Shown: positions 14,853-47,143 of the stretch, in pieces
How positions within the stretch are numbered: position 1 is the first letter of the stretch
Layout: each line of letters begins with the position of its first letter
Assembly (NCBI GenBank): GCA_964481465.1
Contig: CAYZTL010000003.1
Location: 65,717 to 129,716, forward strand
Source: an uncultured Anaerolineales bacterium
GTDB lineage: Bacteria > Chloroflexota > Anaerolineae > Anaerolineales > UBA11858
DNA: 64,000 nt
Direction of reading: 5' to 3'
The notes under the pieces: generated by a model
Seen by the model: only the letters and a program-made list of their open reading frames with translations
What the model was told of the DNA's origin: nothing
Databases searched by the model: none
Program-made: the position numbers and the translations under genes

Positions 14853-14875
14853 CGTTCTCCTCATCTTCCAATCCT

Positions 14876-16297: not shown

Positions 16298-16506
16298 ATG
16301 TTCATCCTTGGAAACAGATATTTGCAGGTCGTATCCCAAATAGGGGCTATTGCCCATGGGATAAACGCCAATCTAAAATGTGATTATACTGCACATCTCA
16401 GGGAACCACAGGATAGAGCAAGAAGGACCGGGTGTTTAATTCCCCCCTCAAACCGGACCCTTCGGGGTTCGCCCTTCACCGCCCCAGTCCAGAAATGGAT
16501 CTCCGT

Positions 16507-19803: not shown

Positions 19804-21042
19804 CTAACGTAGAAGCTTCTTGACCTCTTCCAAATCGGGTTTGATCACCGGCGCTTTGCCCGCTGCATCCATCGCGGCCTCAACATCTTTCAACCCGCTT
19901 CCCGTGTTCAAGACCAAGATCGGGTCCCGGGCCTCAACCAGGCCCTCCTGGAGGGCTTTTTTCAATCCCGCATAGGAGGTCGCTCCAGCGGGTTCGGCGA
20001 AGATACCCACCTCACCCAAATCCGCCACCGCTCGCAGAATGGCCTGGTCTCTTACAGCCACATAAGCGCCGTCCGTCTCTGTAGCAGCCCGCAAGGCTCG
20101 CAGGCCGTCACTGGGCAGATTCACGGAGATGCTGTCCGCCAGGGTATCCGCAGAGACAGGTTTGATCTCTTCCGTCCCCGCCTGGAAAGCGTTGGCGATC
20201 GCCGCAGATCCCGTGGACTGGCAGCCGAAGATGCGCGGCATCTGCTCAAGCATCCCGATCTTTGCCAGATCTTTAAATCCTTTGTGCAATCCGGAGATAA
20301 TGTTCCCATCTCCGACGGAGATGAAAACGCACAGCGGACGCTGAAAATCGTTCTCTTCGATGAGCATTTCCCAAATTTCAAAAGCTGCGGTCTTCTTTCC
20401 CTCCGCGGTGAAGGGGTTGTAGCCCGTATTCCGGTTATACCAGCCGAATTCCCGGGTCGCCTCCAGCGATAACTGGTAGGCAGCGTCATAATTGTCATCC
20501 ACCAGGATAACCTGCGCACCGTAAATCAACAGCTGGGCGATTTTCGCCGGCGGTGCGTTCTTGGGAGCGAAGATCACGGACCGCTGGCCTACCGCTGCAG
20601 CCATACCCGCCAAAGCCGCCCCGGCGTTTCCCGTCGAGGCGGTGACGATCACTTCCGCGCCAATTTCCCGGGCCCGAGCGATCAAAAGCGCGCTGGCCCG
20701 GTCTTTAAAGGAAGCGGTCGGGTTGCTGCTCTCATCTTTGACCCACAGCTGGGGCAGCCCCAGCTCCGCTTTCAACACGGGGGGGGAATAGGTCGGGGTC
20801 CAGCCCGCCGCCCGGAGGGGCGTGCCCTCCCCAATCCATTCCGCAACCGGCAGGAGGGGGAGATAACGCCATAAGGATTCCTCTGCCCTTAAAATAAGCT
20901 CATTTTTAGGCTTCTCTTTTACAGCTGCATAGTCCAGAAGGACATCCAAAATCCCCTCATCTTGGGGACAGGTATAGGTCACCTCATCCGGGCCGTATTC
21001 CGTGCCGCATACCGAACACCGATAACCGACAAATTTTTGCAT
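19804..21042 (-). CDS. thrC: threonine synthase-family PLP enzyme with N-terminal zinc ribbon
   Basis: 412 aa. The N-terminus has CSVCGTEY...YTCP, and SNPTASFKDRAS carries the PLP-lysine motif. Its ATG lies 1 nt after the stop of the ABC ATPase gene. Confidence 0.8.
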   Translation of the reverse strand: MQKFVGYRCSVCGTEYGPDEVTYTCPQDEGILDVLLDYAAVKEKPKNELILRAEESLWRYLPLLPVAEWIGEGTPLRAAGWTPTYSPPVLKAELGLPQLWVKDESSNPTASFKDRASALLIARAREIGAEVIVTASTGNAGAALAGMAAAVGQRSVIFAPKNAPPAKIAQLLIYGAQVILVDDNYDAAYQLSLEATREFGWYNRNTGYNPFTAEGKKTAAFEIWEMLIEENDFQRPLCVFISVGDGNIISGLHKGFKDLAKIGMLEQMPRIFGCQSTGSAAIANAFQAGTEEIKPVSADTLADSISVNLPSDGLRALRAATETDGAYVAVRDQAILRAVADLGEVGIFAEPAGATSYAGLKKALQEGLVEARDPILVLNTGSGLKDVEAAMDAAGKAPVIKPDLEEVKKLLR

Positions 21043-21043
21043 C

Positions 21044-22600
21044 CTATACCTTTTCCTCCTCTTTCACACCAGCCATCATCAAGCCCAGTTTTTCGGGGGT
21101 GGCTTCATCGCCGGGGACGATGCCCATGATCTGGCCTTCGTAGATCACGGCAATCCGATCCGCCAAAGCTAAGATCTCATCCAGGTCCTCGGAAATGAGC
21201 AGGATGGCTGTGCCTTGCTTTCTTTGGGATAACAGTTGCTCGCGGACGTACTCCATAGCACCCACATCCAACCCGCGAGTGGGCTGGGACGCCACGATCA
21301 CCCGGGGTTCCCGGGAAAGTTCCCGGGCCACGACCACTTTCTGAATGTTCCCTCCAGAGAGGCTTTTTGCCAGGGTCTCCCGCGAAGGGGTTTTAATCTG
21401 GTAGTTTTCAATCAACCGGTCGCTGTTTTCCCTGATCGCCTTCAGATTTAAAAAACCAGATTGGGAGAAGGGTTTCTTATGGTGTTCGCGGAGGATCAAG
21501 TTCTCCGCCACCGTAAACTCCTTGATCATCCCATCCCGCATGCGTTCCTCCGGGATGTAGGCAAGTTTACGATCCGTGCGTGCAATGGGTGGATAATGGG
21601 TGATATTCTCTCCATCCAGGAAAATCTTCCCCCTCTCCACCTCCCTTAACCCGGTAATCACCTCGGCCAACTCAAGCTGACCGTTCCCGGAAACCCCAGC
21701 TACACCCAGGATTTCACCCGACCTGACTGCCAAATCAACCCCTCGCAGCCCGGGCGTGCCGCGGTCGCTCTTACAGGATACGCCATCAACCTCTAAACGG
21801 ACCTCGCCGGGTTGGATCTCTTCAATATCGGGACGGAAATCAACCTCACGCCCCACCATCCACCTCGCTAAATCAGATTTGGTCGCATCTACGGTTTGAT
21901 ACGTCCCGACTTTGCGCCCCCCCCGCAAGACCGTCACCCGATCACTGATGTCGATCACCTCATGCAATTTATGTGAGATAAAAATGAGTGCATGTCCATC
22001 TTCTGCCATCTCGTGGATGATCTGGAACAACTCATCCACTTCCTGAGGCGTTAAAACCGCCGTGGGCTCATCGAGGATCAGCAGCGCGGCGCCCCGGTAA
22101 AGGGCTTTCATGATCTCCACCCGCTGCCGCTGTCCAACGGATAACTGCCAAATATACGCGTCCGGATCCATTTCCAGACCATATAAACCCGCCAGCTCCA
22201 GAATGCGCTCGGAGACGCGATCCAGATCCGTCAATGGTTCCCGGGAGGATTCCAGGCCCAAGGCCACATTTTCAGCCACCGTCAAGGTCTCTACCAGCAT
22301 GAAGTGCTGGTGGATCATCCCGATCCCATTCTTGATGGCATCGGTGGGGGATTGGATCTTGACTTGTTTCCCATTCAGGAAGATTTGCCCCTCATCAGCC
22401 TGGTACAAGCCGTAAAGGATATTCATCAAGGTGCTTTTACCAGCCCCATTTTCTCCCAGCAGGGCATGGATTTCCCCGGATCTGACTTCAAAATCGACGC
22501 GGTCATTGGCTAAAACCCCTGGAAAGCGTTTAGTTACCGACCGCATTTCCATGTGGTCAATTCTGACTTCGCCGGTGGGAAGCAAATTATCTTCAGCCAT
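21044..22600 (-). CDS. ABC transporter ATP-binding protein, duplicated ATPase (nucleoside/sugar CUT2 type)
   Basis: 518 aa. Two ABC cassettes are present (GENGAGKST, LSVGQRQRVEI, LLILDEPT; second signature LSGGNIQKVVVAR). Confidence 0.92.
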   Translation of the reverse strand: MAEDNLLPTGEVRIDHMEMRSVTKRFPGVLANDRVDFEVRSGEIHALLGENGAGKSTLMNILYGLYQADEGQIFLNGKQVKIQSPTDAIKNGIGMIHQHFMLVETLTVAENVALGLESSREPLTDLDRVSERILELAGLYGLEMDPDAYIWQLSVGQRQRVEIMKALYRGAALLILDEPTAVLTPQEVDELFQIIHEMAEDGHALIFISHKLHEVIDISDRVTVLRGGRKVGTYQTVDATKSDLARWMVGREVDFRPDIEEIQPGEVRLEVDGVSCKSDRGTPGLRGVDLAVRSGEILGVAGVSGNGQLELAEVITGLREVERGKIFLDGENITHYPPIARTDRKLAYIPEERMRDGMIKEFTVAENLILREHHKKPFSQSGFLNLKAIRENSDRLIENYQIKTPSRETLAKSLSGGNIQKVVVARELSREPRVIVASQPTRGLDVGAMEYVREQLLSQRKQGTAILLISEDLDEILALADRIAVIYEGQIMGIVPGDEATPEKLGLMMAGVKEEEKV

Positions 22601-22631
22601 CTCTCGTCCTTCCTATCCTATGGTACAGGAT

Positions 22632-22670
22632 GGGGGGGAAGGTCGGGGGAACGACCCCCTCGACCTTCCC
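22632..22670 (-). promoter_or_regulatory. GC-rich intercistronic stem-loop between the binding-protein and ATPase genes
   Basis: GGGAAGGTCGGGGG (22636-22649) pairs with CCCCCTCGACCTTCCC (22655-22670), with one bulge. No U-run follows, so it looks like an mRNA stabiliser or attenuator rather than a full terminator. Confidence 0.6.
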
Positions 22671-22687
22671 ATACTTCCCTTATCCAT

Positions 22688-23689
22688 CTACTCTACATCA
22701 ACCGTTATTTCACCGTCAATGATCCCTTGGATGGTCTCATCTGCCAGGGATTTCACGTCCTCCGGCAAATCAAAGTCGGGGTTGAATTCGATCTCCAAAC
22801 CGTCATTCGCCAAGGTGATGGCATAGGCTTTTCCGCCTAAGGTCCCGTTTTGGATGCTGTCAATCATATCCCGGAGGATGACCTCCCAGTGATACACCTG
22901 ACTGGCAACCACGATGCTGGGGGCTAGTTCCGTCTGATTGGCCTGGGTGCCAAACCAGAGGACATCGTTCTCCTCTGCGACGCCGATCGCCCCGGTCACC
23001 ATCTGTGCGGTCCCGGTCAGCACATCCGCGCCTGCGGAAACGTGGGTATTGGCAGCCTCAGATGCCAATGCCACATCCGAGAAGGAACCGATATAGTTCA
23101 CATTGACCCGCACATCCGGGCTGTTAGCTTTCGCTCCCGCTTTGAAACCATCGATGTACAGTTTGGCATCTCCGGTCTCAATGGGACCGACAACACCCAA
23201 GATATTGCTTTCGGAAAGCGTGGCCGCCAAGACGCCGTTGACATACCCGCCCTCTTCCGCCCGAGCCTCATAGGCATAGACGTTGTCAATGCCCTGATCC
23301 TTGAAGGTGTCCACCGTCGTCCCCCAGGCAAAGGCCGTGTCGGGGAAGTCAGGCGCAATTTCCTGTATCGACGACCCATATTGGGACCCATGGCCGATGA
23401 CCAGGTCATAACCCTGGGAGGCGTAGTCCCGGATGGCGGCGGCAGCGTCATCGACGACGAACATGTTCTCTGAATAGTCCAAGGTCATCGCTTCTTCGCC
23501 GCCCATTTCCTCCTGGATGACCATCAACGCGTCATACATGCTCTGGCTGAAAGCCAGGTCATTGATAGGGCTGGGCATGACCAGGGCGACTTTAAACACG
23601 TCATCCTCACCTCCACCAACTCCACCGCCACAGGATGCAAGGACAATGGTCAAGATCAAAAACAAAACGGTTAAACTTTTCTTCCTCAT
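22688..23689 (-). CDS. BMP-family (Med/PnrA-like) ABC substrate-binding lipoprotein, probable nucleoside binding
   Basis: 333 aa. Lipobox LASCGG. FKVALVMPSPINDLAFSQ...GHGSQYG is typical of basic membrane protein (BMP) family binding proteins. Confidence 0.88.
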   Translation of the reverse strand: MRKKSLTVLFLILTIVLASCGGGVGGGEDDVFKVALVMPSPINDLAFSQSMYDALMVIQEEMGGEEAMTLDYSENMFVVDDAAAAIRDYASQGYDLVIGHGSQYGSSIQEIAPDFPDTAFAWGTTVDTFKDQGIDNVYAYEARAEEGGYVNGVLAATLSESNILGVVGPIETGDAKLYIDGFKAGAKANSPDVRVNVNYIGSFSDVALASEAANTHVSAGADVLTGTAQMVTGAIGVAEENDVLWFGTQANQTELAPSIVVASQVYHWEVILRDMIDSIQNGTLGGKAYAITLANDGLEIEFNPDFDLPEDVKSLADETIQGIIDGEITVDVE

Positions 23690-23792
23690 TTCACGCTCCT
23701 TTCACTAAAGCGACTACGGGTAACTTGCCTGCGAAAAATGATTTTTAGACGAGAGGAAAACACCTCCTTTTTTCATAGATCTCCACTGATGA

Positions 23793-24725
23793 TCATTCTT
23801 CCCGTTCAAAAGGCTTTGTTAGAGCGGATGGTGAGCGGACACCCGAAGCTGAGGCCATCAAAACCAAGATGGTCAACACATAGGGCATCATCACAGCGAT
23901 GTCGGAGGGGATGGGGATGCCTAAAACCTGGATCCACAACTGCAGGGAGTTGACCATGCTGAAGATCAACGCCCCTAACATCACACCCACCGGGCGCCAG
24001 CTGCCAAAGTACACCAATGCCACGGCAATAAATCCCAAACCGCTGGTCATGTTCTGTTGAAACACGTTCAACAAAGCGATGGATTGGGAAGCCCCGGCGA
24101 TTCCGGACATGGCACCACCCAGGATCACAGTGAAATACCGGATCCCCGCCACGCTCACCCCTAATGAATCCGCTGCTTCGGGGTTTTCACCAACCGACCT
24201 GATCTTCAATCCCAACGTGGTCTTATTAATCACAAACCAGCTGATGGGGACGAGGGCAAAAGCGATATACACCAAAATGTTGTGTTGAAAGAAAATCTTG
24301 CCCAATACAGGGAGATCACTCAGGTAGGGGATGTCTATTTTGGGGAACCCTTTCACGGTTTCCACCGTCCCTAAGATCTTCTGGAACAGCAAATCGCTCA
24401 GCCCCAGACCAAAAAGGTAAAACCCGATCCCGCTGATCCCCTGCTCCGCCTGGAGATTCACGGTCACAAATGCCATCGCCAACCCCATAATGGCGCCGAC
24501 AATCAAGGCTGCCAGCATGCCCAACCACAGGTTTCCCGTGGTGAATGCCACATAGAAGGCAGCGAAGGCCCCCAAAAGCATTTGCCCTTCCACGCCCAGA
24601 TTAAGGACCCCGCTGCGCTGGCTGAACGTTTCTCCAATCGCGGCATATAAATATGGCGTGGCCAAACGGATCCCAGAGGCGAGTATACCGAACACGACCG
24701 TCGCTGAGAACAAATCCGAGATCAT
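23793..24725 (-). CDS. ABC transporter permease (BMP/nucleoside system, second permease)
   Basis: 310 aa, multi-TM. It overlaps the upstream permease gene by 4 nt. Confidence 0.88.
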   Translation of the reverse strand: MISDLFSATVVFGILASGIRLATPYLYAAIGETFSQRSGVLNLGVEGQMLLGAFAAFYVAFTTGNLWLGMLAALIVGAIMGLAMAFVTVNLQAEQGISGIGFYLFGLGLSDLLFQKILGTVETVKGFPKIDIPYLSDLPVLGKIFFQHNILVYIAFALVPISWFVINKTTLGLKIRSVGENPEAADSLGVSVAGIRYFTVILGGAMSGIAGASQSIALLNVFQQNMTSGLGFIAVALVYFGSWRPVGVMLGALIFSMVNSLQLWIQVLGIPIPSDIAVMMPYVLTILVLMASASGVRSPSALTKPFEREE

Positions 24726-25876
24726 TCCTCCACCTCCTGGCTTCCATCATCCGGAGAATCCTCCTCGCCTGAGGTTGTTTCTCTCATCTTTTGCGCCAAC
24801 CTCCGCCTTTGCCGCTTTTGACGCAAGATTTCGCTGCTGACCACAAAAACCACCACCAGACCATTGAGGGCAGTGATCAAAGCGGAAGGGATTTGCATCA
24901 CCCGCTGCATTTTGTTAGCGCCCACCAGTAATCCTCCAAATAAGATGGAAGCCGGAATGGTGCCCAGGGGATGGAGCTGACCAAATAAGGCAGCCACTAT
25001 ACCGTTGAAGCCCGCACTCCCCGTGAATCCAGAAGCAGAGCCATCCGTGATCATCCGGTAATTGACCCCGTATACCTTGGCAACCCCTGCGAGACCGGCA
25101 AAAGCGCCGCTCAACAAGAGCGCCAGAACCACGTTTCGTTTCACCTTGATCCCGGCATATCTGGCAGCATGGGGACTTTGACCTACAGCCCGGATGCGAT
25201 AACCCACCACCGTTCGCCAGAGGAGGATATACACCAAAACAGCCAGGACCACAGCGATCAAGGCTCCCAGATGCAAACGCGTGGGCACCCAGCGGGGCAG
25301 GTGGAAGGCGTCCTGTAAACGGGCGGTCTGGGGGATCTTGGAGGCCAGTTCCGCCTGGGCGGGGTCAATCATCGGTCCCCGGAGTAGAAAATTCATCAAT
25401 TGCACAGCAATGGCATTCATCATCACCGTGCTGAGGATCTCATTGACGTTGAAATAGGCCTTTAAGGCACCTGGAATCCCTCCCCAGATCGCGCCGCCAA
25501 TGAAACCACCCAAGAACGCCATAATAATCACTAACCAGCCAGGAAAGTTGGTCAAGTTCAGTCCCACCAAAGTCCCCAAGATGGCACCGACGATCATCTG
25601 GCCCTCGCCGCCGATGTTGATCACATCCCCGCGAAAGGAGATGCAGATCCCGAGCCCGACCAGCAGTAACGGAGTCGCTTTCACCAGTGTCTCGGCTACC
25701 GAATTCCAGCTCCCGAATGCGCCGTTGACCAGCGCACCATACGCTCTAAAGGGATTGACGTTGAAAAACAAGAGCATGATTGCCCCCAACGCGAACGCTC
25801 CCAAGGCGGCAACCATGGGCAGGGAAGTATCAATCACCTGTGAGACCCATTCGGCTTTGACCCACTTTTTCATCAT
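24722..25876 (-). CDS. ABC transporter permease (BMP/nucleoside system, first permease)
   Basis: 384 aa, multi-TM, with INIGGEGQM motifs typical of branched-chain/sugar-type permeases. It has a charged C-terminal tail. Confidence 0.88.
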   Translation of the reverse strand: MMKKWVKAEWVSQVIDTSLPMVAALGAFALGAIMLLFFNVNPFRAYGALVNGAFGSWNSVAETLVKATPLLLVGLGICISFRGDVINIGGEGQMIVGAILGTLVGLNLTNFPGWLVIIMAFLGGFIGGAIWGGIPGALKAYFNVNEILSTVMMNAIAVQLMNFLLRGPMIDPAQAELASKIPQTARLQDAFHLPRWVPTRLHLGALIAVVLAVLVYILLWRTVVGYRIRAVGQSPHAARYAGIKVKRNVVLALLLSGAFAGLAGVAKVYGVNYRMITDGSASGFTGSAGFNGIVAALFGQLHPLGTIPASILFGGLLVGANKMQRVMQIPSALITALNGLVVVFVVSSEILRQKRQRRRLAQKMRETTSGEEDSPDDGSQEVEE

Positions 25877-26100
25877 CTGTGTCCTTTCGATATCCTCATC
25901 CTGCGTCCGGCAGCGAGCCTTTGCATCCCCCGTAAAGGAGCGGGGGGATGGTTGATAGGGAAGGCCACTCTTCCCCTTGAATTCCGCTAAAGAGCCGGCA
26001 AGGTTTTCCTCTTCACAAACGCCGGCACCATCCTACCCATCTGAGAGCCTACTATCCGGATTTCCTCTCCCGGATACTGGCTGGACTCCCTCTCTCCTTT

Positions 26101-26128
26101 AGTATAACTGACGACTCGTGAAACCCAA
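26101..26128 (-). promoter_or_regulatory. candidate sigma70-type promoter for the ABC operon
   Basis: On the minus strand: TTGGGT-N16-TATACT. This would give a leader of about 215 nt. Confidence 0.25.
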
Positions 26129-26189
26129 TCCATGAATGACGGCGAAAGCCCAATTTAGTCCCGGAAAACCTCAAGGGATCTTCACTTAA

Positions 26190-27146
26190 TTATGGGACAA
26201 TGTGCGTACCGGTCTCCCCTTTCAAGGCCCGTCCGATGTTTTCCGGGTTGGTGACGATGGCCTTTTTACCGCCGCTCTCCAGAAAGCGGACGATGGCTTT
26301 GATCTTCGGTTCCATGGAACCTTTGGCGAAGTGCGTGCCTTCCTCCAGATACCGCTTCGCCTCAGCGACGGTCATGGTGTCGATCCATTCTTGATCAGGC
26401 TTCCCGAAGTTTAAGGCCACTTTTTCCACTGCAGTGGAAATCAAATACAAATCGGCGTTGATCTCATTGGCCAACAAACCGGAAGCGAAATCTTTGTCGA
26501 TCACCGCCGCGGTCCCCCGCACTTCGTCCCCATCGCGGATGACCGGGATTCCGCCGCCACCCACGGTGATCGTGATCGTCCCCATGTCGATCAAGGCTTT
26601 CACCGCCTCCAACTCCATGATCTCCTGGGGTAAAGGGGAAGGGACTACCCGCCGCCAACCCCGCCCGGCATCCTCGACCACATCCCAGCCGTCTTCTCTT
26701 TGCCTGCGCTGGGCTTCGTCCTCCTCCATGAAACTGCCAATGGGTTTGGAAGGCTCCTGGAATGCAGGGTCATCCGGATCCACCCGAACCTGGGTGATCA
26801 CGGTGGCTGCTCCCTTGTCAATGCCCCGTTTCCGCAGATCATTCTGGATGTTTTGCTGCAGGGCGTAGCCAATCGCGCCCTGGCTGTCTGCGCCGCACAC
26901 ATCGAGGGGCAGTTCATGCATCCCTTCCACACGAGCGGCGATCTCCGAGCGGCGGAGGATGAACCCCACCTGGGGCCCATTTCCGTGCCCAATGGCGATG
27001 TCCCAGCCCTGCTCAATCATGTCCACCAGGTGTTTGGCAGTCTCCTTTGCCGCCTGGTACTGATCTTCTACGGTCTGGTGATCCTTGCTCTTGATCAATG
27101 AGTTGCCGCCGATGGCGACAACGGCTACTTTTCGTTCCTCACTCAT
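26190..27146 (-). CDS. arcC: carbamate kinase
   Basis: 318 aa. VVAIGGNSL...IGHGNGPQVG and length match carbamate kinase. Confidence 0.92.
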   Translation of the reverse strand: MSEERKVAVVAIGGNSLIKSKDHQTVEDQYQAAKETAKHLVDMIEQGWDIAIGHGNGPQVGFILRRSEIAARVEGMHELPLDVCGADSQGAIGYALQQNIQNDLRKRGIDKGAATVITQVRVDPDDPAFQEPSKPIGSFMEEDEAQRRQREDGWDVVEDAGRGWRRVVPSPLPQEIMELEAVKALIDMGTITITVGGGGIPVIRDGDEVRGTAAVIDKDFASGLLANEINADLYLISTAVEKVALNFGKPDQEWIDTMTVAEAKRYLEEGTHFAKGSMEPKIKAIVRFLESGGKKAIVTNPENIGRALKGETGTHIVP

Positions 27147-27154
27147 ACCTTCTC

Positions 27155-28135
27155 CTAACGCATGCTCAAAGCCATGACGGCTTTTTGTGCATGCAATCGA
27201 TTCTCAGCCTGGTCGTAGACTACGGACTGCGGTCCATCCATCACTTCACTGGTCACCTCCACATCCCGATCCGCCGGGAGGGGGTGCATGTAAATGGCAT
27301 CCTTGTCAGCTAGCGCCATCTTGCGGGCGTCCGTGATCCAATCCTTGTACTGATCCTGAATGCGTTTGCCTTCCTCCTGGTCCCGGGTCGTCAGCAGCGG
27401 ACCCCAAGATTTGGCATAGACGATATCCGCCCCTTCAAAACCCTCTTCCATGTCATGGACGACTTCGAACTGGGTGTCGTAATTCTCTGCCTGTTCCCGC
27501 GCTTGTTCCATGATCTCCGGCATGAGCTCAAACTCCGGGGGATGGGATAAGGTGACGTCCAATCCAAAGCGGGGCATCTGCAAGATCAAGGACTGGGGGA
27601 CGGAGATCGGTTTCAGGTACGAAGAAGCATAGGCCCAGGAAACGACGATCTTCTTTCCCCGCAAATCCTTCCCTTTCTTTTCCTGGATGGTCATCAAATC
27701 CGCCAGGCATTGATGGGGGTGGTAAAACTCATCCTGCATGTTGAGCACGGGGACGCGGGACGCGGAGGCGACGTTATTGAGATAGTTATTGCCAATCCCC
27801 CAATCCACATGGCGGATGGCAATGCCATCGAAATAGCGCCCCAATATCTCTCCCAGCTCTTTTTCTGTATCTCCATGGGAGACCTGGGTGGTGCGGCTCT
27901 CGATGAAGGCCGCATGCCCGCCTAACTGCGCCATCCCGGCTTCAAAGGATGACCTCGTCCGGGTGCTGGAAAAGAAGAACAGCATCCCCAGGGTCTTATC
28001 CCGCAAATAGGCGTGGGGCTGGCCCAAAGCCCGCTTCTTTTTCAAGTCCCAGGCCACATCCAGGACCGTTTCCACTTCTTCTTTGCTGAAATCAAGGTCG
28101 CTGATCAGATCTCGATTTCTCAAATCCGTAATCAT
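27155..28135 (-). CDS. carbamoyltransferase of the AOTCase/SOTCase/YgeW-like (knotted) group, substrate unknown
   Basis: 326 aa. It has SSTRTRSSFE (carbamoyl-P site), HPHQCLADL, VVSWAY...P..VPQS, YAKSWGPL and MHPLPADRDVEVTSEVMDGPQSVV. These parallel B. fragilis/Xanthomonas ArgF' motifs recalled from memory, not classical OTC (DxxxSMG/HCLP). Confidence 0.8.
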   Translation of the reverse strand: MITDLRNRDLISDLDFSKEEVETVLDVAWDLKKKRALGQPHAYLRDKTLGMLFFFSSTRTRSSFEAGMAQLGGHAAFIESRTTQVSHGDTEKELGEILGRYFDGIAIRHVDWGIGNNYLNNVASASRVPVLNMQDEFYHPHQCLADLMTIQEKKGKDLRGKKIVVSWAYASSYLKPISVPQSLILQMPRFGLDVTLSHPPEFELMPEIMEQAREQAENYDTQFEVVHDMEEGFEGADIVYAKSWGPLLTTRDQEEGKRIQDQYKDWITDARKMALADKDAIYMHPLPADRDVEVTSEVMDGPQSVVYDQAENRLHAQKAVMALSMR

Positions 28136-28237
28136 CTTTCAAACTCCTTCTATAAAATTCTAGGGTATCATGGGGGCAGAACTGTGGGGGATCCCCCCGC
28201 TCTGTCCCCCATTTGTATGATCGGTTTCCAAACCACC

Positions 28238-29191
28238 TCACTCTTTAGCGCCTAACACCAAAGCCAGAAGCGCCATGCGCATGACCACACCGTTGAAGCC
28301 CTCCTCCCAATAGCGTGACCAGCGGGTGTGGTCCACGTCCGGGGGAATCTCATCCATGCGGGGCAGGGAGTGGAGCAGGATGGCGTCAGATTTGGCCTTG
28401 GTTTCCAGCAACTCTTTGGTGATTTTGAATTGGGGGGGAGTCTGGGCCACTTCACCCTTCCGTTCATCGCGGGATTTGGTGTAATCCGGCTGGACCACCG
28501 GCTCGACCAGGATGACATCCGCCTCTCCAATTACTTCTCGCACATCATCGCCTTCCGTGAAGTCCAGGCTGCCGGCTTTGAAGTCTTCCCTGTACTCATC
28601 CGGGAGGGACATGTCGTCCGGGGAAATCAAGGTCAGGGGGCAGTCAAACTGGGTCAGGGCATGGCCCAGGGAATGCATGGTGCGCATGCGCATGTCGCCC
28701 ACAGCGACCCAATTCAAGCCATCGATGGTCCCTTTTTCCTTCAAGACGGTGTAGAGATCGGTCAGAATCTGCGTGGGATGTTCCCCCCACCCGTCCCCAC
28801 CGTTGATCACCGGCACGCTGACCCATTTGGCCGCTTCATGAGGCGCGCCTTTCTGGAAGTGGCGGGTGACGATCACATCCCCATAATGCTCCAACATCTT
28901 GAACGTGTCTTTGATGGACTCCTGGTAGAAGTCGCCCGCGCGGGTCACGCTGGCATCCGCAAAACCGGTCACCTTCCCCCCCAAGCGCAGCATAGCGGAC
29001 TCATGCGCCAATCGGGTTCGGGTGGAGGGCTGATAGAAAGCCGTCACCAGCGTCTTTTCTTTGAGCAGGTCGACATTTTTCCGATTGTGCGCGATGGGCG
29101 CCAGTTCGTCAGCGACCTCAAAGACCCGCAGAAATTCGCGGCGCTCAAAATCCTTCAAAGATAAAATGTCTCGTCCTAAAAAACTTCGCAT
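28238..29191 (-). CDS. aspartate carbamoyltransferase-like paralogue (non-canonical second-substrate site)
   Basis: 317 aa. STRTRLAHESAMLRLGG, HPTQILTDL, LHSLPRMDEI and NGVVMRMALLALVLG align with PyrB. The conserved TR(V/I)Q segment reads EPVVQ instead. Confidence 0.8.
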   Translation of the reverse strand: MRSFLGRDILSLKDFERREFLRVFEVADELAPIAHNRKNVDLLKEKTLVTAFYQPSTRTRLAHESAMLRLGGKVTGFADASVTRAGDFYQESIKDTFKMLEHYGDVIVTRHFQKGAPHEAAKWVSVPVINGGDGWGEHPTQILTDLYTVLKEKGTIDGLNWVAVGDMRMRTMHSLGHALTQFDCPLTLISPDDMSLPDEYREDFKAGSLDFTEGDDVREVIGEADVILVEPVVQPDYTKSRDERKGEVAQTPPQFKITKELLETKAKSDAILLHSLPRMDEIPPDVDHTRWSRYWEEGFNGVVMRMALLALVLGAKE

Positions 29192-29224
29192 GTCCTTTAC
29201 TCCTTTTCATATAAATTGAATGCT

Positions 29225-30001
29225 CTATAGGTTTATGTCTTCCTGTCCCTCACCTCTTGCCCACGAAGATGAACCTGAAATCTCGTTCCCTACATGGCGC
29301 ACGATATGAAAACGGAAGTAGCCCGGCAAGAAATAGCTGAATGAATAATCCACCACCCGTCCCCTGGTGGAGTACAACTGGGAGCGGAACATCAAGATGG
29401 GTGCGTGGCGTTGGATATCCAGCGCGCTGGCAATTTCTGGCGAAGCGCCGGTGGCGTTGATATCCGTGCGCGAACTTGCCAGGGGAGGTTGATTCTTTTC
29501 TAATAACAGATCCAAAATGGAGCCCGTGAAGTCAGACGGGATTTCATCCGCTGTCAAGACATCAGTGGGTAATATGTCAACCAAATAGGCAACCGGCCGG
29601 TTCTCCGCCATGATGACCCTTGACACGCGGACGATGTCTACATCCAAATCCAAATCCAATGCTTCCGCTTCCTCTTCGCTGGGAAAACCCCGGACAACTT
29701 CCAGTTCCCCCATTGACACGGAAAGGCCAATCCTCTCCGCCAACGTGTCCAAACTGACCAGATGTTCCAACCCGCTCTCGAAAACCTCGGTGGGGTGGAT
29801 CACAAACGTACCCACGCCCTGTTTTCTGCGCAGTAAACCCCTCGTTTCAAAAGTCCTCATCACTTCCCGAAGGGTAGCCCGGGACACACCAAGCTGATCA
29901 GCAAGCTTGGGTTCCGAGGGCAGCCGTTCCCCGGTTTGCATGTCGGCGATGATCGCGCTTAATTTTTCCCGGACTGTCTCTGAAACTCCCTGGGTACCCA
30001 T
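29225..30001 (-). CDS. GntR-family transcriptional regulator, HutC subfamily (winged HTH + UTRA domain)
   Basis: 258 aa. LPSEPKLADQLGVSRATLREVMRTFETRGLLRRKQGVGTFV is the GntR HTH signature. The length fits a UTRA effector domain. Confidence 0.9.
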   Translation of the reverse strand: MGTQGVSETVREKLSAIIADMQTGERLPSEPKLADQLGVSRATLREVMRTFETRGLLRRKQGVGTFVIHPTEVFESGLEHLVSLDTLAERIGLSVSMGELEVVRGFPSEEEAEALDLDLDVDIVRVSRVIMAENRPVAYLVDILPTDVLTADEIPSDFTGSILDLLLEKNQPPLASSRTDINATGASPEIASALDIQRHAPILMFRSQLYSTRGRVVDYSFSYFLPGYFRFHIVRHVGNEISGSSSWARGEGQEDINL

Positions 30002-30003
30002 GG

Positions 30004-31806
30004 CTATACTTCTTCAACTACGGGGATAAGTTCAAATTTATCAGCATCCACCAATCCCAAATCTGAAATCCGCAAGGCGGGAATGACCACCAAAGCCAAA
30101 AGGCTGAGCTGCATATTGGGATTCTTAATCGTGCACCCGCACTCCCGGAACCCTTCTAACACCGACGCGGCTTCTTCCGCCACGATCTCAGCCCGCTTAT
30201 CGGACATCAAACCAGCGATCGGCAAGGGGACTTTCCCGATCACTTCCCCCCCTTTGACCACTACCTGCCCCCCCTGCATATCCACCAACTCATTGGCGGC
30301 CTGGGCCATTTGGGCTTCATCCGTCCCCACCACGATCATGTGATGTGAGTCGTGAGCAACCGTACTGGCAATGGCGCAATCCGGGCCAAGTTCAAAGCCC
30401 TGCACCAAACCCACTTGCACACCTCCGGTGGCATTGTGCCGCTCTACCAAGGCAATTTTCGCTAAATCGCGCGCCAAATCCACCTTGACTTCGCCGCCTT
30501 CCGCCTCTACGGGAATCCGCAAGTGCTTCGTGGGCGCCTGCCCTTCGATGACGCCGATGACATGGGCTTCCAGTTCCGCACCGGACAGCTCTTCCGGGAC
30601 CTGCAAGCGGAAATCATCCGCTTTCAGAGGGCGTTTGACGTTGACGGAATGGGTCGCCCAGCGGGGATACGCCACCTCCGGCATATCGACCTCCCAGCCC
30701 CCTTTTTCGGCAATCACCTGGCCTTTGGCGATCACCACTTCCGCGCGGAAATCATCCAAATCCGGAACCAGGAGGATGTCTGCATAGCGCCCGGGGGCAA
30801 TTTGTCCCATATCCCGCGCCACCCCGAAGTGCTCCGCGGTGTTCAAGGTCGCCATTTGGATCACAGTTAGAGGATCGACGCCCAAACCAATAGTATGGCG
30901 GACCACGCGGTCCATATGTCCCTCGTTGACCAGAGTCTCAGAATGGGTGTCATCCGTGCAGAGCAGGAAATGCCGGGAATCCAATCCCTCTTCGGTGACC
31001 GCTCTGATCTGGGCTTCGACATCCAGCCAGCCGGATCCGTAACGGAGCATGGCTTTCATTCCCTGCCGGACACGCGCCAGCGCGTCTTCCTTGCGGGTCC
31101 CCTCGTGATCGTCCTCAGGGCCGCCCGCTGCGTAGCCATGAAAAGGCATTCCCAGATCGGGGGACGCATAATGCCCCCCTACCACTTTCCCTGCACTCCT
31201 GGTGGCTGCCATTTCATCGTGCATTTTCTGGTCATTGTTAAACACGCCGGGGAAATTCATCATTTCCCCCAGCCCGATAATCCGTTCCCAGGACATGGCT
31301 TCCGTGACTTCTTCCGGACCAATGCTGGACCCCGGTGTCTCCAAGCCCGGGGCGGAGGGGACACAGGAGGGCACCTGCACCCAGACGTGGATGGGCTGCT
31401 TTTCGGCTTCTTCAGCCATCAAACGTACGCCCTTCAACCCAAAGACATTGGCGATCTCATGGGGATCGACGAACATGCCCGTCGTCCCATGGGGAGCTAC
31501 GGCGCGGACGAATTCGGTGATGGTGACCATGCCGGATTCAATGTGCATGTGGGCGTCCAATAAGCCGGGCACTAGATAACAGCCCTCAGCCCGGATGACC
31601 TCCGTCCCGTCGCCAATGGTGTGAGAAGCGTCTTCTCCCACGAAAGCGATCCGCTCCCCTACCACAGCGATATCGATGTCAGGGATGATCTCTCCCGACT
31701 GGACGTTCACCCACTGCCCGCCCTTTATCACCACATTGGCGGGCGCTCTCCCCATCGCCACATCCACTAACTTCTGCGTTCGTTCACGAATGGTTTTCAT
31801 GTTCAT
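30004..31806 (-). CDS. ade: adenine deaminase-family amidohydrolase
   Basis: The track ORF runs to 31851. ATG 31806 follows AGGAG. GLLDAHMHIESGMVT...GTTGMFVDPHEIANVFG is the COG1001 adenine deaminase pattern. About 600 aa. Confidence 0.85.
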   Translation of the reverse strand: MNMKTIRERTQKLVDVAMGRAPANVVIKGGQWVNVQSGEIIPDIDIAVVGERIAFVGEDASHTIGDGTEVIRAEGCYLVPGLLDAHMHIESGMVTITEFVRAVAPHGTTGMFVDPHEIANVFGLKGVRLMAEEAEKQPIHVWVQVPSCVPSAPGLETPGSSIGPEEVTEAMSWERIIGLGEMMNFPGVFNNDQKMHDEMAATRSAGKVVGGHYASPDLGMPFHGYAAGGPEDDHEGTRKEDALARVRQGMKAMLRYGSGWLDVEAQIRAVTEEGLDSRHFLLCTDDTHSETLVNEGHMDRVVRHTIGLGVDPLTVIQMATLNTAEHFGVARDMGQIAPGRYADILLVPDLDDFRAEVVIAKGQVIAEKGGWEVDMPEVAYPRWATHSVNVKRPLKADDFRLQVPEELSGAELEAHVIGVIEGQAPTKHLRIPVEAEGGEVKVDLARDLAKIALVERHNATGGVQVGLVQGFELGPDCAIASTVAHDSHHMIVVGTDEAQMAQAANELVDMQGGQVVVKGGEVIGKVPLPIAGLMSDKRAEIVAEEAASVLEGFRECGCTIKNPNMQLSLLALVVIPALRISDLGLVDADKFELIPVVEEV

Positions 31807-31857
31807 GGGGAACACTCCTGAGAAGATTATTATCGAATAAAACCTTTCCAAAACAAT

Positions 31858-33240
31858 TCAGCGAACCAGTTTCCTTGCCAATTGGTTGTGGGTTTCCATG
31901 AGCTGGTTGACATCTGCGGTAACCAGTTCTCCTTCCTTGACGACAAATTTCCCGCCCACCACGTTGTAAGCAACAGCGCTTGGAGCGCAAAAAGGCACGG
32001 CAGCGACCGGATCATGCAGGGCGCCAGCATATCCTAACTGCTGTAAATCGAGGGCGATGAAATCCCCCACTTTCCCCTTTTCCAACGATCCGATGTCTGG
32101 ACGACCTAACACCGCTGCACCGCCCCGCGTACCCATCTCCAGCGCCTGGCGGGCAGACATGATCGGCAGGGCATTTTCTCCCGAGCGAGAAGCCCCCAAC
32201 ATCCCCGCTCTCAAACGAGCCAAAAGCATGGCCCGCCGGACCTCTTCGATCATATGCGAACTGTCATTGCTGGCTGAGCCGTCGACACCGACGCCCACAT
32301 GGATCCCGGCCTTCAACATATCCAGGATGGGCGCTGCACCGGACGCCAGGCGCATGTTTGAACCGGGGCAGTGAGCGACGCCGCACTCGTGCTTTGCATA
32401 CTTGGCCAATTCCTGATCATTGACATGCACCGAATGGGCAAACCAGACATCCGACCCCATCCAATCCACCTCTTCCATGTAAGCAACGGGACGTTTCCCA
32501 AATTGCTCCAAGCAGAAATCAACTTCATCTTCCGTCTCTGCCAGATGGGTATGCAGCCGGACACCGTACTCCCGGGCCAAGGCAGCGCTTTCCCGCATCA
32601 AATCTCCCGTGACGCTGAACGGCGAGCAGGGAGCGAGGGCAATTTGCAGGAAGGATCCCGGGTCGGGGTCATGGTATTCCTCAATCACCCGCTGGGAATC
32701 GCGCAGGATCTCGTCTTCATCCTCCACCACACTATCTGGGGGAAGCCCCCCCTTGCTCTCCCCTAAGCTCATCGAACCCCGGGAAGCATGCAAACGCAAG
32801 CCGATCTCTCTGGCTGCCTGGATTTCGTCATCCAATCGGGAGCCGTTGGGAAAGAGATAGAGGTGATCTAAGGCTGTCGTGCATCCGGAAAGGGCCAATT
32901 CAGCCAAGGCGGTCTTCGTGGACACCCGGATTTCCTCAGGGCCCATTCTGGCCCAAATGGGATAGAGCGTCTTCAGCCAGTGGAACAGGTTTACATCCTG
33001 CGCCTCCGGAACCACCCTGGTCAAGGTTTGATAAAAGTGGTGGTGCGTGTTCACCAGCCCAGGGAGGACGATATGCCCTGAACCATCCAGCACCTCGTCT
33101 GCCTGGTCTGGCAAGGAAGCGGTGGGTCCAACCGCTTCAATGAATCCGTCTTTAATGAAAATACCACCGCCCTTAATCTCTCGACGGTGGTCATCCATGG
33201 TCACCAATATTTCCGCGTTTTTAACCAATAATGTGCTCAT
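31858..33240 (-). CDS. COG0402 amidohydrolase (8-oxoguanine/guanine/SsnA-type deaminase-like)
   Basis: 460 aa. LPGLVNTHHHFYQTLTR and HLAET...E are typical of the 8-oxoguanine deaminase/chlorohydrolase subgroup. Confidence 0.85.
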   Translation of the reverse strand: MSTLLVKNAEILVTMDDHRREIKGGGIFIKDGFIEAVGPTASLPDQADEVLDGSGHIVLPGLVNTHHHFYQTLTRVVPEAQDVNLFHWLKTLYPIWARMGPEEIRVSTKTALAELALSGCTTALDHLYLFPNGSRLDDEIQAAREIGLRLHASRGSMSLGESKGGLPPDSVVEDEDEILRDSQRVIEEYHDPDPGSFLQIALAPCSPFSVTGDLMRESAALAREYGVRLHTHLAETEDEVDFCLEQFGKRPVAYMEEVDWMGSDVWFAHSVHVNDQELAKYAKHECGVAHCPGSNMRLASGAAPILDMLKAGIHVGVGVDGSASNDSSHMIEEVRRAMLLARLRAGMLGASRSGENALPIMSARQALEMGTRGGAAVLGRPDIGSLEKGKVGDFIALDLQQLGYAGALHDPVAAVPFCAPSAVAYNVVGGKFVVKEGELVTADVNQLMETHNQLARKLVR

Positions 33241-33275
33241 TCGCCCTACCTGGTTTTCAAGCTGGACATCCTAAG

Positions 33276-33286
33276 TTGTCTGACAA
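33276..33286. promoter_or_regulatory. palindromic operator candidate O1 (TTGTC-N-GACAA), over the predicted transcription start
   Basis: TTGTCTGACAA lies within AGTTGTCTGACAATTAAA, immediately downstream of the -10 element on the minus strand. Confidence 0.6.
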
Positions 33287-33291
33287 TTAAA

Positions 33292-33320
33292 AGTTTAACA
33301 AAAAGGGGGCAATTTGTCAA
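33292..33320 (-). promoter_or_regulatory. sigma70-type promoter of the deaminase-transcarbamylase operon
   Basis: On the minus strand: TTGACA (33320-33315)-N17-TAAACT (33297-33292), about 50 nt upstream of ATG 33240. Confidence 0.55.
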
Positions 33321-33331
33321 TTGTCAGACAA
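33321..33331. promoter_or_regulatory. palindromic operator candidate O2 (TTGTC-N-GACAA), abutting the -35 box
   Basis: TTGTCAGACAA lies within CAATTGTCAGACAATTAAA. It is the exact reverse complement of O1, centre-to-centre 45 bp. Confidence 0.6.
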
Positions 33332-33446
33332 TTAAATTCCCATGAGAAGTGACCCTGTTGACGGATTGATCCACCCTGCCTCGGACTGCTCGACATACAG
33401 GGCGGATGGGATCGTTCGAGTCCCCCTCTCTCTGCGAGGTTGCGGG

Positions 33447-34556
33447 CTAGAATATATTCAGGCCAAAGAGATGATTCGCCAAGGAAGGATACAGCAAACA
33501 GAACACCGCCAGGGCCAAAATCAGGATTAACCCGACAAGGGCCAGCAAGGAAAGGCATCCGCCCCGAAATCTTTCCGCCCTGGAAGGGGTTTGCTCCTTC
33601 TCGTCAAAGAAAGAAGATACTTTTTCCTTTGTCCCTTCATCCAGATCTTTGGTGATAATCCGTTCTCCCTCGGATTCCTGGTCTTCTTTTGCATCCCCCG
33701 CATCTGACGCTCCCGCACGATCCATACCGAAGCTGAACGCAAACCGCCCACTCTGGGCTTTTAGCAGTTCATTTTTAAACTCCGCAGCCATCTGAAAGCG
33801 GTTGCTGGGATGCACTTCAAGGGCCTTCTCGATGGCATCCGCAACTCTCCGGGACACTTTCGGATTTCGCTCTCGAACGGGCGTCAATTCCTCCTGATCC
33901 ATCGTCCGCGCCAGACTGTCTTCCGGAGTGATCCCCGTCAGGGCGGTGTACAGGGTGGCCCCCAAAGAGTAAATATCCGTCCTGGGATCCGTTCGAGCAG
34001 CGCCATATTGTTCGGGAGGGGAGAAACCCATCGTCATCGCCCTGGCGCCCGTGGAAGTCGTTTGATCTCCCCGGATGATCTTCGCCAATCCGAAATCCAC
34101 CAAGTAGATTTCCTCTCGGGGCGTGATCCGCACGTTGCCCGGCTTGATATCCCGGTGCAAAACGACCGGATCATGGGAGTGCATGTAGGCGAGCGCATCA
34201 CAAATGGTCGCCCCGATCACGATTACCTCTTCCTCCGGAATGACCTTGATGCGCTCCATCCTCTCCTGAAGGTCTTCCCCCTCCACATAATCCATGATCA
34301 AGTATTGCCCTTGATCGGCAATGGAAAAGTGGTCTGTGACACGAGGTAAGTTGGGATGGCGGAGGCTGGCTAAGATGACCGCTTCCCGCTTGAATTGCCG
34401 TGTGTAATCCTCAATGGTGAATAGGTTTTCTTTGACCGCTACCTCAACCCCCAGGTTCTCATCCACTGCCCGGTATATGGATCCCATTCCTCCTTGGCCG
34501 AGGACTTCGATAATCCGATATCTATCTTTGAGGAGAGAACCCTGTTTGAGTGGCAT
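33447..34556 (-). CDS. Hanks-type Ser/Thr protein kinase with C-terminal membrane anchor
   Basis: 369 aa. GQGGMGSIYRAVD, VAVK, HRDIKPGN, DFGLA and SPPE are present, with a TM helix near the C-terminus. Confidence 0.9.
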   Translation of the reverse strand: MPLKQGSLLKDRYRIIEVLGQGGMGSIYRAVDENLGVEVAVKENLFTIEDYTRQFKREAVILASLRHPNLPRVTDHFSIADQGQYLIMDYVEGEDLQERMERIKVIPEEEVIVIGATICDALAYMHSHDPVVLHRDIKPGNVRITPREEIYLVDFGLAKIIRGDQTTSTGARAMTMGFSPPEQYGAARTDPRTDIYSLGATLYTALTGITPEDSLARTMDQEELTPVRERNPKVSRRVADAIEKALEVHPSNRFQMAAEFKNELLKAQSGRFAFSFGMDRAGASDAGDAKEDQESEGERIITKDLDEGTKEKVSSFFDEKEQTPSRAERFRGGCLSLLALVGLILILALAVFCLLYPSLANHLFGLNIF

Positions 34557-46185: not shown

Positions 46186-46218
46186 CCCCTAACCCCTCCA
46201 CCTAGCGTATGACCCCTT

Positions 46219-47136: not shown

Positions 47137-47143
47137 TCTTCCC

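Follow-up and report, generated by a model that had tools for sequence, protein, structure and literature searches.

What an operon would gain by placing two purine-type amidohydrolases beside two carbamoyltransferases and a carbamate kinase is the question raised by a six-gene locus of an uncultured Anaerolineales bacterium (contig CAYZTL010000003.1; the whole 64-kb stretch that was analysed is called the window below). All six open reading frames (ORFs) lie on the minus strand, from position 33240 to 26190, where a first-pass annotation had placed them, and profile searches confirmed the families it had named. They encode a deaminase of the 8-oxoguanine-deaminase family, an adenine deaminase, a HutC-type GntR regulator, a protein resembling aspartate carbamoyltransferase (ATCase) that we call pATC (pseudo-ATCase), a short YgeW-type carbamoyltransferase, TC2, and a carbamate kinase (CK). 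Judging from sequence and gene context, we consider it probable that the cluster, with its feeder steps, provides the regulated lower half of the reductive uric-acid (2,8-dioxopurine) pathway in a form peculiar to Anaerolineae and some other bacteria.

In E. coli and Clostridium sporogenes this pathway comprises xdhD-ygfM, ygfK, ssnA, hyuA, ygeW, ygeY, ygeX and yqeA, in which SsnA and HyuA open the rings to give 2,3-diureidopropionate; one of its ureido groups is phosphorolysed by YgeW and the second is removed hydrolytically by YgeY, and the resulting diaminopropionate is deaminated by YgeX (bioRxiv 10.1101/2025.04.24.650524; PMC12507026). ATP is obtained from 2,3-diureidopropionate by YgeW and YqeA (bioRxiv 10.1101/2025.04.24.650524), and the YgeW-dependent phosphorolysis was likewise reported in PMC12507026. 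The E. coli ygeW neighbourhood had been offered in the first-pass annotation as the nearest analogy; the analogy holds, but its description as only partly understood has been overtaken, as the pathway was solved in 2025 by these two studies. Overtaken too is the statement that neither carbamoyltransferase had an assignable substrate, since YgeW cleaves 2,3-diureidopropionate and substrates can now be proposed.

TC2 (27155 to 28135, minus strand; 326 aa) consists of OTCace_N and OTCace domains with STRTR, HPHQ and HPLP motifs, and is 35% identical to E. coli YgeW in alignment. It carries two YgeW-like blocks, SWAYASSYLKPISVPQ and YAKSWGP. On the second-substrate side of YgeW, TC2 has SWAYASSYLKPISVPQS where YgeW has TWAYSPSYGKPLSVPQG, which is nearly the same block (pattern SWAYxxSYxKPxSVPQ), and ADIVYAKSWGP of TC2 corresponds to ADIVYPKSWAP of YgeW (common pattern ADIVYxKSWxP). 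The second-substrate residues proposed for YTCase by Shi et al. (2015) are Q160, S200, K203, K270 and D124; the first four are matched identically in TC2 (blocks NMQ, SSYLKP and AKSW), while D124 is not clearly conserved. From the YTCase motifs for carbamoyl phosphate (S[LT]RT, HPxQ and H[AVC]LP), TC2 has STRTR and HPHQ, and the third is HPLP, with P for A, V or C. The orthologue in Anaerolinea thermophila carries HCLP.

The marks of the ornithine-type enzymes are missing from TC2. It has KSWGPLL in place of the ornithine motif DxxxSMG (DVWASMG) and HPLP in place of HCLP, and it scored below the cut-off of all ornithine carbamoyltransferase (OTCase) models. From the acetylornithine and succinylornithine enzymes (AOTCase and SOTCase) it departs in having STRT and not S[LM]RT, HPLP and not HCLP, no 80s loop (E92), a Q at the position of AOTCase E144/SOTCase E142 and an E at that of K302. 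TC2 stays under every NCBIfam cut-off, and comes nearest with AOTCase (NF003384; 265.8 against 288), OTCase (262.8 against 306) and YgeW (194.7 against 453), its highest-scoring models.

TC2 and pATC were linked to their UniProt orthologues through the alignment in supplementary file 5 of Barba et al., in which TC2 is 74.8% identical to E8MZ16 of A. thermophila and 66.1% to A1SH60 of Nocardioides sp. JS614. Both proteins are labelled YTC (YgeW-type) in the tree of Barba et al. (2013), where they are sisters with 99% support and group with Moorella and Spirochaeta at 79%; the tree lists a separate OTC of A. thermophila, E8N5X1, besides the TC2 orthologue (PMC4016543). The phylogenetic check that had been suggested for TC2 therefore puts its orthologues in the YTC clade and not in ArgF'. 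Our own neighbour-joining (NJ) trees also grouped TC2 with YgeW and YgeW-like representatives, with weak bootstrap values; in a tree of 98 sequences the support for exact clades was 2-17%, partly owing to fragments. Because of this weak support, the assignment leans on the residues themselves, on the neighbouring genes and on the tree of Barba et al., and from these TC2 is predicted to be a short-form relative of YgeW and neither an ArgF' nor an OTCase.

The neighbouring pATC (28238 to 29191, minus strand), also made up of OTCace_N and OTCace domains, is a pseudo-ATCase of the Nocardioides A1SH59 type. It scored above the cut-off of TIGR00670 (253.7 against 236.95) and below that of NF002032 (221.1 against 263). 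Where ATCase has HPLP (HP[LG]P), pATC has HSLP; the ATCase motif RxQxER is absent, with R229 replaced by K or P and Q231 by R or V in the alignments, K84 is replaced by Y or Q, and eight residues, EPVVQPDY, are inserted in the 240s region. The residues that bind carbamoyl phosphate (STRTR, R105, H134 and Q137) are intact, and R167 is kept too. With A1SH59, pATC has 61.8% identity and the common blocks GDMRM-RTMHS, EPVVQxDYT and HSLPRMDE, and it shows the features of that type: HSLP, a 240s region without RxQ and an adjacent YTC-type gene, here TC2. Neither pyrC nor pyrI was found beside pATC among the window ORFs or in family scans. Both carbamoyltransferases had been called non-canonical earlier, and indeed neither has the aspartate or the ornithine motif; the placement suggested for pATC leads to the A1SH59 type, without the aspartate-site residues of ATCase. 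We propose that pATC is a second catabolic carbamoyltransferase, and the adjacent pATC-TC2 pair is conserved between Actinomycetota and Chloroflexota.

To see how this pair is placed in other genomes, TC2 was searched over species-representative genomes, relatives were found in at least 573 of them, and the best 80 loci were analysed with 10 kb on either side (loci are cited below by L numbers and homologous proteins by P numbers). All 80 belong to Chloroflexota (Anaerolineales, Caldilineae and Ardenticatenaceae), with 76-89% identity. A check of neighbourhood conservation had been proposed in the first-pass annotation, and the arrangement proves to be more than chance: the same order of genes is seen again in dozens of Chloroflexota genomes at species level. 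Synteny gives the conserved core as pATC-TC2-CK, followed by a ThrC-like pyridoxal phosphate (PLP) enzyme, ThrCl, and a second PLP enzyme, PALP486; in Anaerolineales a 192-aa protein and a hydantoinase come next. Both deaminases and the regulator, which many Anaerolineales loci have and the other orders lack, are a variable, accessory part of the cluster. The deaminases belong to the operon, as had been claimed, but not to its core.

The slot just upstream of TC2 could be assessed in 64 loci. It holds pATC alone in 47, a YgeY-type M20 protein alone in nine, both in five and neither in three, so pATC and/or YgeY is kept in 61 of the 64. The M20 protein is YgeY, with 37-43% identity to E. coli YgeY and a TIGR03526 score of 445 against a cut-off of 321. 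As a separate observation on these genes, six proteins that are 83-86% identical to TC2 or pATC (P0057, P0059, P0065, P0067, P0104 and P0148) are named 'Candidatus Heimdallarchaeaceae archaeon' metagenome-assembled genomes (MAGs) in NCBI; they are most likely Chloroflexota contigs in the wrong bin. In ten related genomes the run of pATC, TC2 and CK is interrupted, not always at the same junction, by a small gene for a 23S rRNA-intervening-sequence protein (PF05635, 116 bits; cluster c27, L027:146-550 and nine other loci), of which the window has no copy.

Several relatives join the core to further genes of the reductive pathway. L073 reads XDH-YgeY-pATC-TC2-CK-ThrCl-PALP486-YgfK-SsnA (XDH, xanthine dehydrogenase), and L051 contains XDH, CK-pATC-TC2-ThrCl-PALP486, an F420 reductase, a Se-dependent XDH, SsnA and an 8-oxoguanine-deaminase homologue; YgfK, SsnA, Se-dependent XDH and YgeY in these two loci all scored above curated cut-offs. 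Eight or more other loci have XDH genes after the transporter. The gene of a more distant TC2 relative, P0245 (54% identity), stands behind XDH, a PALP486 homologue (55%) and YgeY (52%), and that of another, P0250 (49% identity), is followed by a ThrC-like gene. For the nearest AOTCase-like and OTCase-like representatives, P0256 and P0254, the contigs are too short to show a gene context. A compact cluster of nine genes, YgfK-SsnA-YgfM-XdhD-PALP498-YgeY-TC-CK-ThrC-like, was found in L091 (1665-15960) and L092 (1404-15984), from a lineage outside Chloroflexota whose related proteins are named Xanthomonadales or Gammaproteobacteria MAGs by NCBI. The core module reads, in this order, PALP486, YgeY or pATC, a short YgeW-like TC2, CK and the ThrC-like enzyme, and it is met again across phyla beside SsnA, YgfK and XDH genes. 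No YgeX orthologue was found in the 80 loci. In addition, the operon of three Brevefilum-type loci (L022, L035 and L057; for example L057:5120-6590) is immediately preceded by a weak DHO_dh-like gene (21 bits, below its cut-off) together with one for a PyrK-like Fe-S protein; the two could encode a UacX-like yanthine reductase or simply pyrD/pyrK.

From the reductive uric-acid gene set, the window itself has the HyuA-like, YgeW-like and YqeA-like members, and the relatives with the module have SsnA, YgfK, YgeY and XDH. The YqeA-like member is CK (26190 to 27146, minus strand; AA_kinase fold), with 55% identity to E. coli YqeA and a TIGR00746 score of 391.9 against an equivalog cut-off of 358.25. 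The idea that ureido groups would be phosphorolysed to carbamoyl phosphate, from which CK would make ATP, had been put forward in the first-pass annotation; it gains support from comparative genomics, from the YgeW-like blocks of TC2, from the YqeA-like CK and from the linkage to SsnA, YgfK, YgeY and XDH.

The locus resembles the 2,8-dioxopurine pathway in placing a YgeW-related TC2 beside a YqeA-like CK, in its HyuA-like hydantoinase (37% identity to E. coli HyuA), in the joining of the module to true SsnA, YgfK, YgeY and XDH genes in relatives, and in the passage from ureido phosphorolysis through carbamoyl phosphate to ATP, which we infer here from the genes. It differs in that TC2 is short, in that pATC stands in place of YgeY, and in that there is no YgeX, with a ThrC-like and a 486-aa CysK-like PLP enzyme instead. 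The regulator is of the HutC/GntR type here and a sigma-54 activator, YgeV, there; a BMP-family ABC importer is present here, and XDH, SsnA and YgfK are not within the window.

The pATC-TC2 type of pair has been noticed before, in Nocardioides sp. JS614, where A1SH59 (labelled 'ATC_III_HSLP', a pseudo-ATCase) and A1SH60 (YTC) stand beside xdhABC and hyuA and A1SH59 formed a single-organism subgroup with no function given (Barba et al. 2013, PMC4016543). That pair and ours are orthologous and adjacent, with common signature motifs and a purine-catabolic context. Our pair comes from another phylum, Chloroflexota, in which dozens of species have it together with a kinase, a regulator, a candidate operator and PLP partners. 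The arginine and agmatine deiminase pathways are alike in their substrate-level phosphorylation through carbamoyl phosphate and carbamate kinase, but they have a single carbamoyltransferase, deiminase and antiporter partners, and DxxxSMG or PTCase motifs that are absent here. In E. coli, the AllFGH oxamate carbamoyltransferase and the AllK/YbcF carbamate kinase yield ATP from oxalurate anaerobically (PMC11326118, PMC9843812). This too is ATP from a purine-derived ureide under anaerobiosis; AllFGH, however, does not have the ATCase/OTCase fold, and the cluster has no allFGH-like genes.

A sequence of steps can be proposed from these likenesses. The HutC repressor would keep the operon off until a purine-derived ligand arrives, and purines or nucleosides would be imported through the BMP transporter. 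Aminopurines (adenine and an amino-oxopurine) would be deaminated by the two deaminases of the cluster, and XDH, a yanthine reductase and SsnA, presumably encoded outside the window, would yield a ureido-hydantoin, which the hydantoinase would open to 2,3-diureidopropionate. TC2 could then phosphorolyse one ureido group of 2,3-diureidopropionate, as YgeW does, and pATC the remaining one, taken to be the N-alpha-carbamoyl (2-ureido) group, a step that is done hydrolytically by YgeY in E. coli. From each carbamoyl phosphate and ADP, CK would produce ATP, NH3 and CO2, giving up to two ATP per purine as opposed to one. The product, of the diaminopropionate type, may then be turned into pyruvate and ammonia by the two PLP enzymes, in place of YgeX.

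The 2-ureido group is assigned to pATC because it is descended from an enzyme of N-alpha-carbamoyl amino acids and shares a slot with YgeY, and this assignment fits the step order of the bioRxiv study better than that of the Life Metabolism paper. More tentatively, and at somewhat less than even chances, pATC may represent a new specificity, the phosphorolysis of the N-carbamoyl group of 2-ureido-3-aminopropionate or of 2,3-diureidopropionate, evolved from ATCase and replacing YgeY. Both ureido groups would then be harvested in Anaerolineae and Nocardioides, doubling the ATP from substrate-level phosphorylation, with ThrCl and PALP486, as PLP enzymes not recognised before, replacing the diaminopropionate ammonia-lyase.

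Some of the observations weigh against the reductive uric-acid reading. With the YgeW models NF005538 and TIGR03316, TC2 scored 194.7 against a cut-off of 453 and 184.3 against 500; by raw score it is as near to archaeal OTCase and AOTCase as to YgeW, and the three insertions of YgeW are absent from it (326 aa against about 396 aa). In a cleaned NJ set of 23 taxa, TC2, P0245 and YgeW came together with about 40% bootstrap. Both pATC and TC2 match GyrB in their slow evolution (76-89% identity between orders), which is notable for catabolic enzymes. In one alignment of pATC the residues at ATCase 229 and 231 are K and R, so an acidic substrate such as carbamoyl-aspartate could still be accommodated. 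Five loci keep both YgeY and pATC, so the two may not be strict equivalents.

The upper pathway and the fate of the product add further points on this side. XDH/XdhD, SsnA, a YgfK/UacX-type reductase, YgeY and YgeX were not found in the 64-kb window, and the upper pathway is therefore assumed for the source organism. The published studies (bioRxiv 10.1101/2025.04.24.650524 and PMC12507026; also PMC12990295) disagree on which ureido group YgeW removes. Hydantoinase and YgeX are absent within 10 kb on either side of L091 and L092; with no hydantoinase there, the PLP enzymes may do something less straightforward than replace YgeX, and the roles given to them above are guesses.

Two other explanations are slightly more probable than the remaining ones, each of them unlikely. 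In one, energy would be conserved only by TC2 and CK; pATC would have a different or regulatory role, for instance as a non-catalytic paralogue or in handling an SsnA side product, and the second ureido group would be hydrolysed elsewhere. The five loci with both YgeY and pATC would suit this explanation, and no assay exists for pseudo-ATCases of the Nocardioides type; it is opposed by the intact carbamoyl-phosphate-binding residues and R167 of pATC, by the strong purifying selection on the protein, and by the retention of pATC or YgeY in nearly all assessable loci.

In the other, which we find just as improbable, the route would be an oxidative one of the allantoin type, in which pATC would act on allantoate in the manner of a ureidoglycine carbamoyltransferase (UGTCase) and TC2 on oxalurate or ureidoglycolate, both feeding CK. 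Cultured Anaerolineae are anaerobes, which counts against an oxidative route. In its favour, allantoate likewise bears two ureido groups, the allantoinase model gives the hydantoinase 246, short of its cut-off of 358, and pATC falls within a broad 'pseudo-ATCase' group that includes UGTCase and has the H(S/T)LP motif. The UGTCase of Rubrobacter xylanophilus, Rxyl_2847, is paired with a carbamate kinase (PMC4016543), and like it pATC is derived from ATCase, has H(T/S)LP and is paired with a carbamate kinase in a purine-catabolic setting. The identity of pATC to this enzyme (Q1AS69) is, however, 35.6%, its 240s loop is different and not of the GX[SC] type, and the Rubrobacter gene stands with uricase and allantoinase, whereas pATC has no allantoin genes nearby. 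Family scans and cluster analysis found no uricase, HIU hydrolase or allantoinase in the window or the 80 loci, and the genes that are co-located are those of the reductive pathway, namely SsnA, YgfK, Se-dependent XDH and YgeY.

A fermentation of pyrimidines or orotate seems very unlikely. Here the hydantoinase would serve as a dihydropyrimidinase or dihydroorotase, and N-carbamoyl-beta-alanine, N-carbamoyl-beta-aminoisobutyrate or N-carbamoyl-aspartate would be phosphorolysed. The best model of the hydantoinase is named 'dihydropyrimidinase', catabolic enzymes of this kind were predicted to be possible by Shi et al. (2015), and the basic residues at ATCase 229 and 231 in one alignment of pATC would be in keeping with it. 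Against this, a dihydropyrimidine dehydrogenase is not among the genes found in the window, the partner genes are purine deaminases, XDH, SsnA and YgfK, the substrate-side blocks of TC2 match YgeW, and pATC has lost K84.

Least probable of all is an anabolic arrangement in which CK would act as a carbamoyl-phosphate synthetase, as in Pyrococcus, and feed an ATCase for pyrimidines and an OTCase or AOTCase for arginine: the best solved-structure matches are indeed Pyrococcus OTCase (for TC2) and ATCase (for pATC), pATC is above the TIGR00670 cut-off, both enzymes are as slow-evolving as GyrB and the cluster sits amid housekeeping genes (gyrB and folP), but pATC lacks RxQ, K84 and HPLP, TC2 lacks DxxxSMG and the AOTCase-specific residues, the pATC slot alternatively holds the ureido-hydrolase YgeY, relatives join the module to SsnA, YgfK and XDH genes, HutC-type repressor control is shared with purine deaminases and A. 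thermophila has its separate OTC. This arrangement is rejected because of residues and context and not from a gene inventory, which is again a weakness of the reductive uric-acid reading.

If the reductive uric-acid reading holds, the locus would matter in several ways. Anaerolineae are abundant in anaerobic digesters, sediments and wastewater and have few proven energy sources; a widely conserved, repressor-controlled route from purines to ATP could be part of their niche, and the TC2 gene alone is in at least 573 species-level genomes. The carbamoyltransferase subgroup left as an orphan in 2013 now has a testable candidate substrate, and so has the short YgeW-like family. In its lower half, the newly described gut uric-acid pathway appears to exist in at least two forms, YgeW/YgeY/YgeX on the one hand and a short TC with YgeY or pATC, PALP486 and a ThrC-like enzyme on the other, and these may differ in energy yield. 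Identity cut-offs for YgeW and YgeX would miss the Anaerolineae variant when metagenomes are annotated for uricolytic capacity, and the variant bears on the engineering of urate-degrading strains. The type of pathway has been known since 2025 and the pATC/YTC gene pair had been seen once, in 2013, with no function. In the literature searched, several points appear undescribed: how widely Anaerolineae carry the pair, the fact that it alternates with YgeY, the candidate HutC operator, the implied second substrate-level phosphorylation and the cross-phylum module of five genes with two PLP enzymes other than YgeX.

The control of the operon can be read from the region upstream of the first gene (33276 to 33331, minus strand), for which a single promoter/operator region had been claimed; it has one promoter-like site flanked by two exact palindromes. 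The best sigma-70-like site of the promoter scan lies at 33320-33292, with a -35 hexamer TTGACA (33320-33315), a 17-nt spacer and a -10 hexamer TAAACT (33297-33292) preceded by an extended TG. One palindrome, TTGTCAGACAA (33321-33331), abuts the -35 hexamer, and the other, TTGTCTGACAA (33276-33286), lies immediately 3' of the -10. The consensus TTGTCWGACAA has only these two exact copies in the window, and they are probably a pair of operators for the HutC/GntR regulator. Some 45 of the related loci have the same 11-mer before the first gene of the cluster, whichever gene that is. Loci L016 and L057 have a copy before the PALP486 gene too, which ties PALP486 to the same regulon.

The intergenic gaps of 51, 2, 33, 102 and 8 nt given by the first-pass annotation are right if the adenine deaminase starts at ATG 31806. 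Scans for internal terminators and promoters gave no more than chance in the operon and are uninformative on co-transcription either way. The gap between the kinase and the ABC permease gene (25877-26189) is unusually long, at 313 nt. A riboswitch or other RNA was considered for it, and no Rfam match at E<=1 was obtained; its sequence is unconserved in the 80 related loci.

The regulator (29225 to 30001, minus strand) combines an N-terminal GntR winged helix (57.5 bits) with a C-terminal UTRA effector domain (80 bits) and has a palindromic candidate operator at its own operon, as expected for the HutC subfamily. Most of the related loci have its gene right before that of pATC or YgeY. In L018 a second HutC/GntR paralogue (L018:16901-17668) precedes a second BMP transporter of the same type as that in the window, with a one-mismatch copy of the palindrome 30 nt upstream.

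The first deaminase (31858 to 33240, minus strand; Amidohydro_1, COG0402 type) scored 680 bits against the cut-off of 532 of NF006055, and is presumed to be a funnel deaminase that would give an oxopurine. It was ruled out as the SsnA of the locus, with 24% identity to E. coli SsnA and a score of 148 against the SsnA cut-off of 444; L051 has a true SsnA together with a neighbouring homologue of this deaminase. Elsewhere in the window, a gene on the plus strand (37861-39846) encodes a TRZ/ATZ-type amidohydrolase of 661 aa, in which a C-terminal stretch of about 220 residues matches no Pfam family. This enzyme too was ruled out as SsnA, at about 24% identity and far under the cut-off, and 3' of it lie a phosphodiesterase gene, a HisN/inositol-phosphatase-like gene and an aldo-keto reductase gene. 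The adenine deaminase (Adenine_deam_C; TIGR01178 507 against 472.5; minus strand) extends over 30004 to 31851 from a TTG start or 30004 to 31806 from an ATG; the ATG is more likely the start, and it is the one used in the gene call (600 aa) of an identical Logan contig. Seven loci (L006, L010, L011, L021, L025, L037 and L040) have a second, divergent adenine-deaminase-like paralogue after the ABC transporter, often just before XDH genes, with 35-41% identity to the adenine deaminase of the window.

The functional unit is larger than the six genes first described. These were correctly grouped, but the unit extends about 11 kb past CK, through an importer and PLP enzymes to the hydantoinase, with all of its genes on the minus strand. 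The BMP-family ABC importer (21044 to 25876), already noted downstream in the first pass, consists of two permeases (24722-25876 and 23793-24725), a binding protein (22688-23689) and a double ATPase (21044-22600). This cassette, inserted after CK, is variable: many relatives lack it or have another BMP system in its stead. ThrCl (19804 to 21042) starts 1 nt past the stop codon of the ATPase gene. It has NPFTAEGKKT for the threonine-synthase motif NPxRxEGQKT, with the Arg and Gln lost, and ASTGNAGA where threonine synthases have ASTGNTSA. Five solved threonine synthases all have NPxRxEGQKT unaltered, whereas every one of the 43 ThrCl homologues departs from it, and because of this loss ThrCl is likely not a threonine synthase. 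No usable literature on the phosphate-binding arginine of threonine synthase was found, and the argument is one of motif comparison. ThrCl follows CK or TC2 in most relatives and also partners distant relatives of TC2.

Further along, a family-2 glycosyltransferase gene (18832 to 19761) stands between the two PLP genes, a placement seen only in Anaerolineales loci, and is probably an unrelated insertion. PALP486 (17309 to 18769) is a 486-aa, divergent and highly conserved CysK/CBS-like PLP enzyme with a C-terminal extension, 54-55% identical to the PALP protein whose gene precedes YgeY and a TC2 relative in L086 and L091. It is followed by the 192-aa conserved protein (16507 to 17085), which has no family match and stands between PALP486 and the hydantoinase in nine related loci. 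The hydantoinase (14876 to 16357), found about 10 kb on as the first-pass annotation had said, is a D-hydantoinase/dihydropyrimidinase of the HyuA-like kind (TIGR02033 512 against 393) and is in the same position in L014, L016, L070 and L074. The 3' end of its gene is overlapped by a dihydropteroate synthase ORF (13983-15218, minus strand). The homology of that ORF begins at residue 136, its true start is probably near 14813, and its best model is Sul4, with 400 bits against a cut-off of 600.

Three Ser/Thr kinases are encoded in the window (33447-34556, 44422-49131 and 52616-53662), one of them fused to a PQQ-type beta-propeller, with a PP2C phosphatase, a DnaJ-VWA protein and an FHA protein encoded near them. 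The first of these kinase genes, 33447-34556, lies just upstream of the operon in many other Anaerolineales loci as well.

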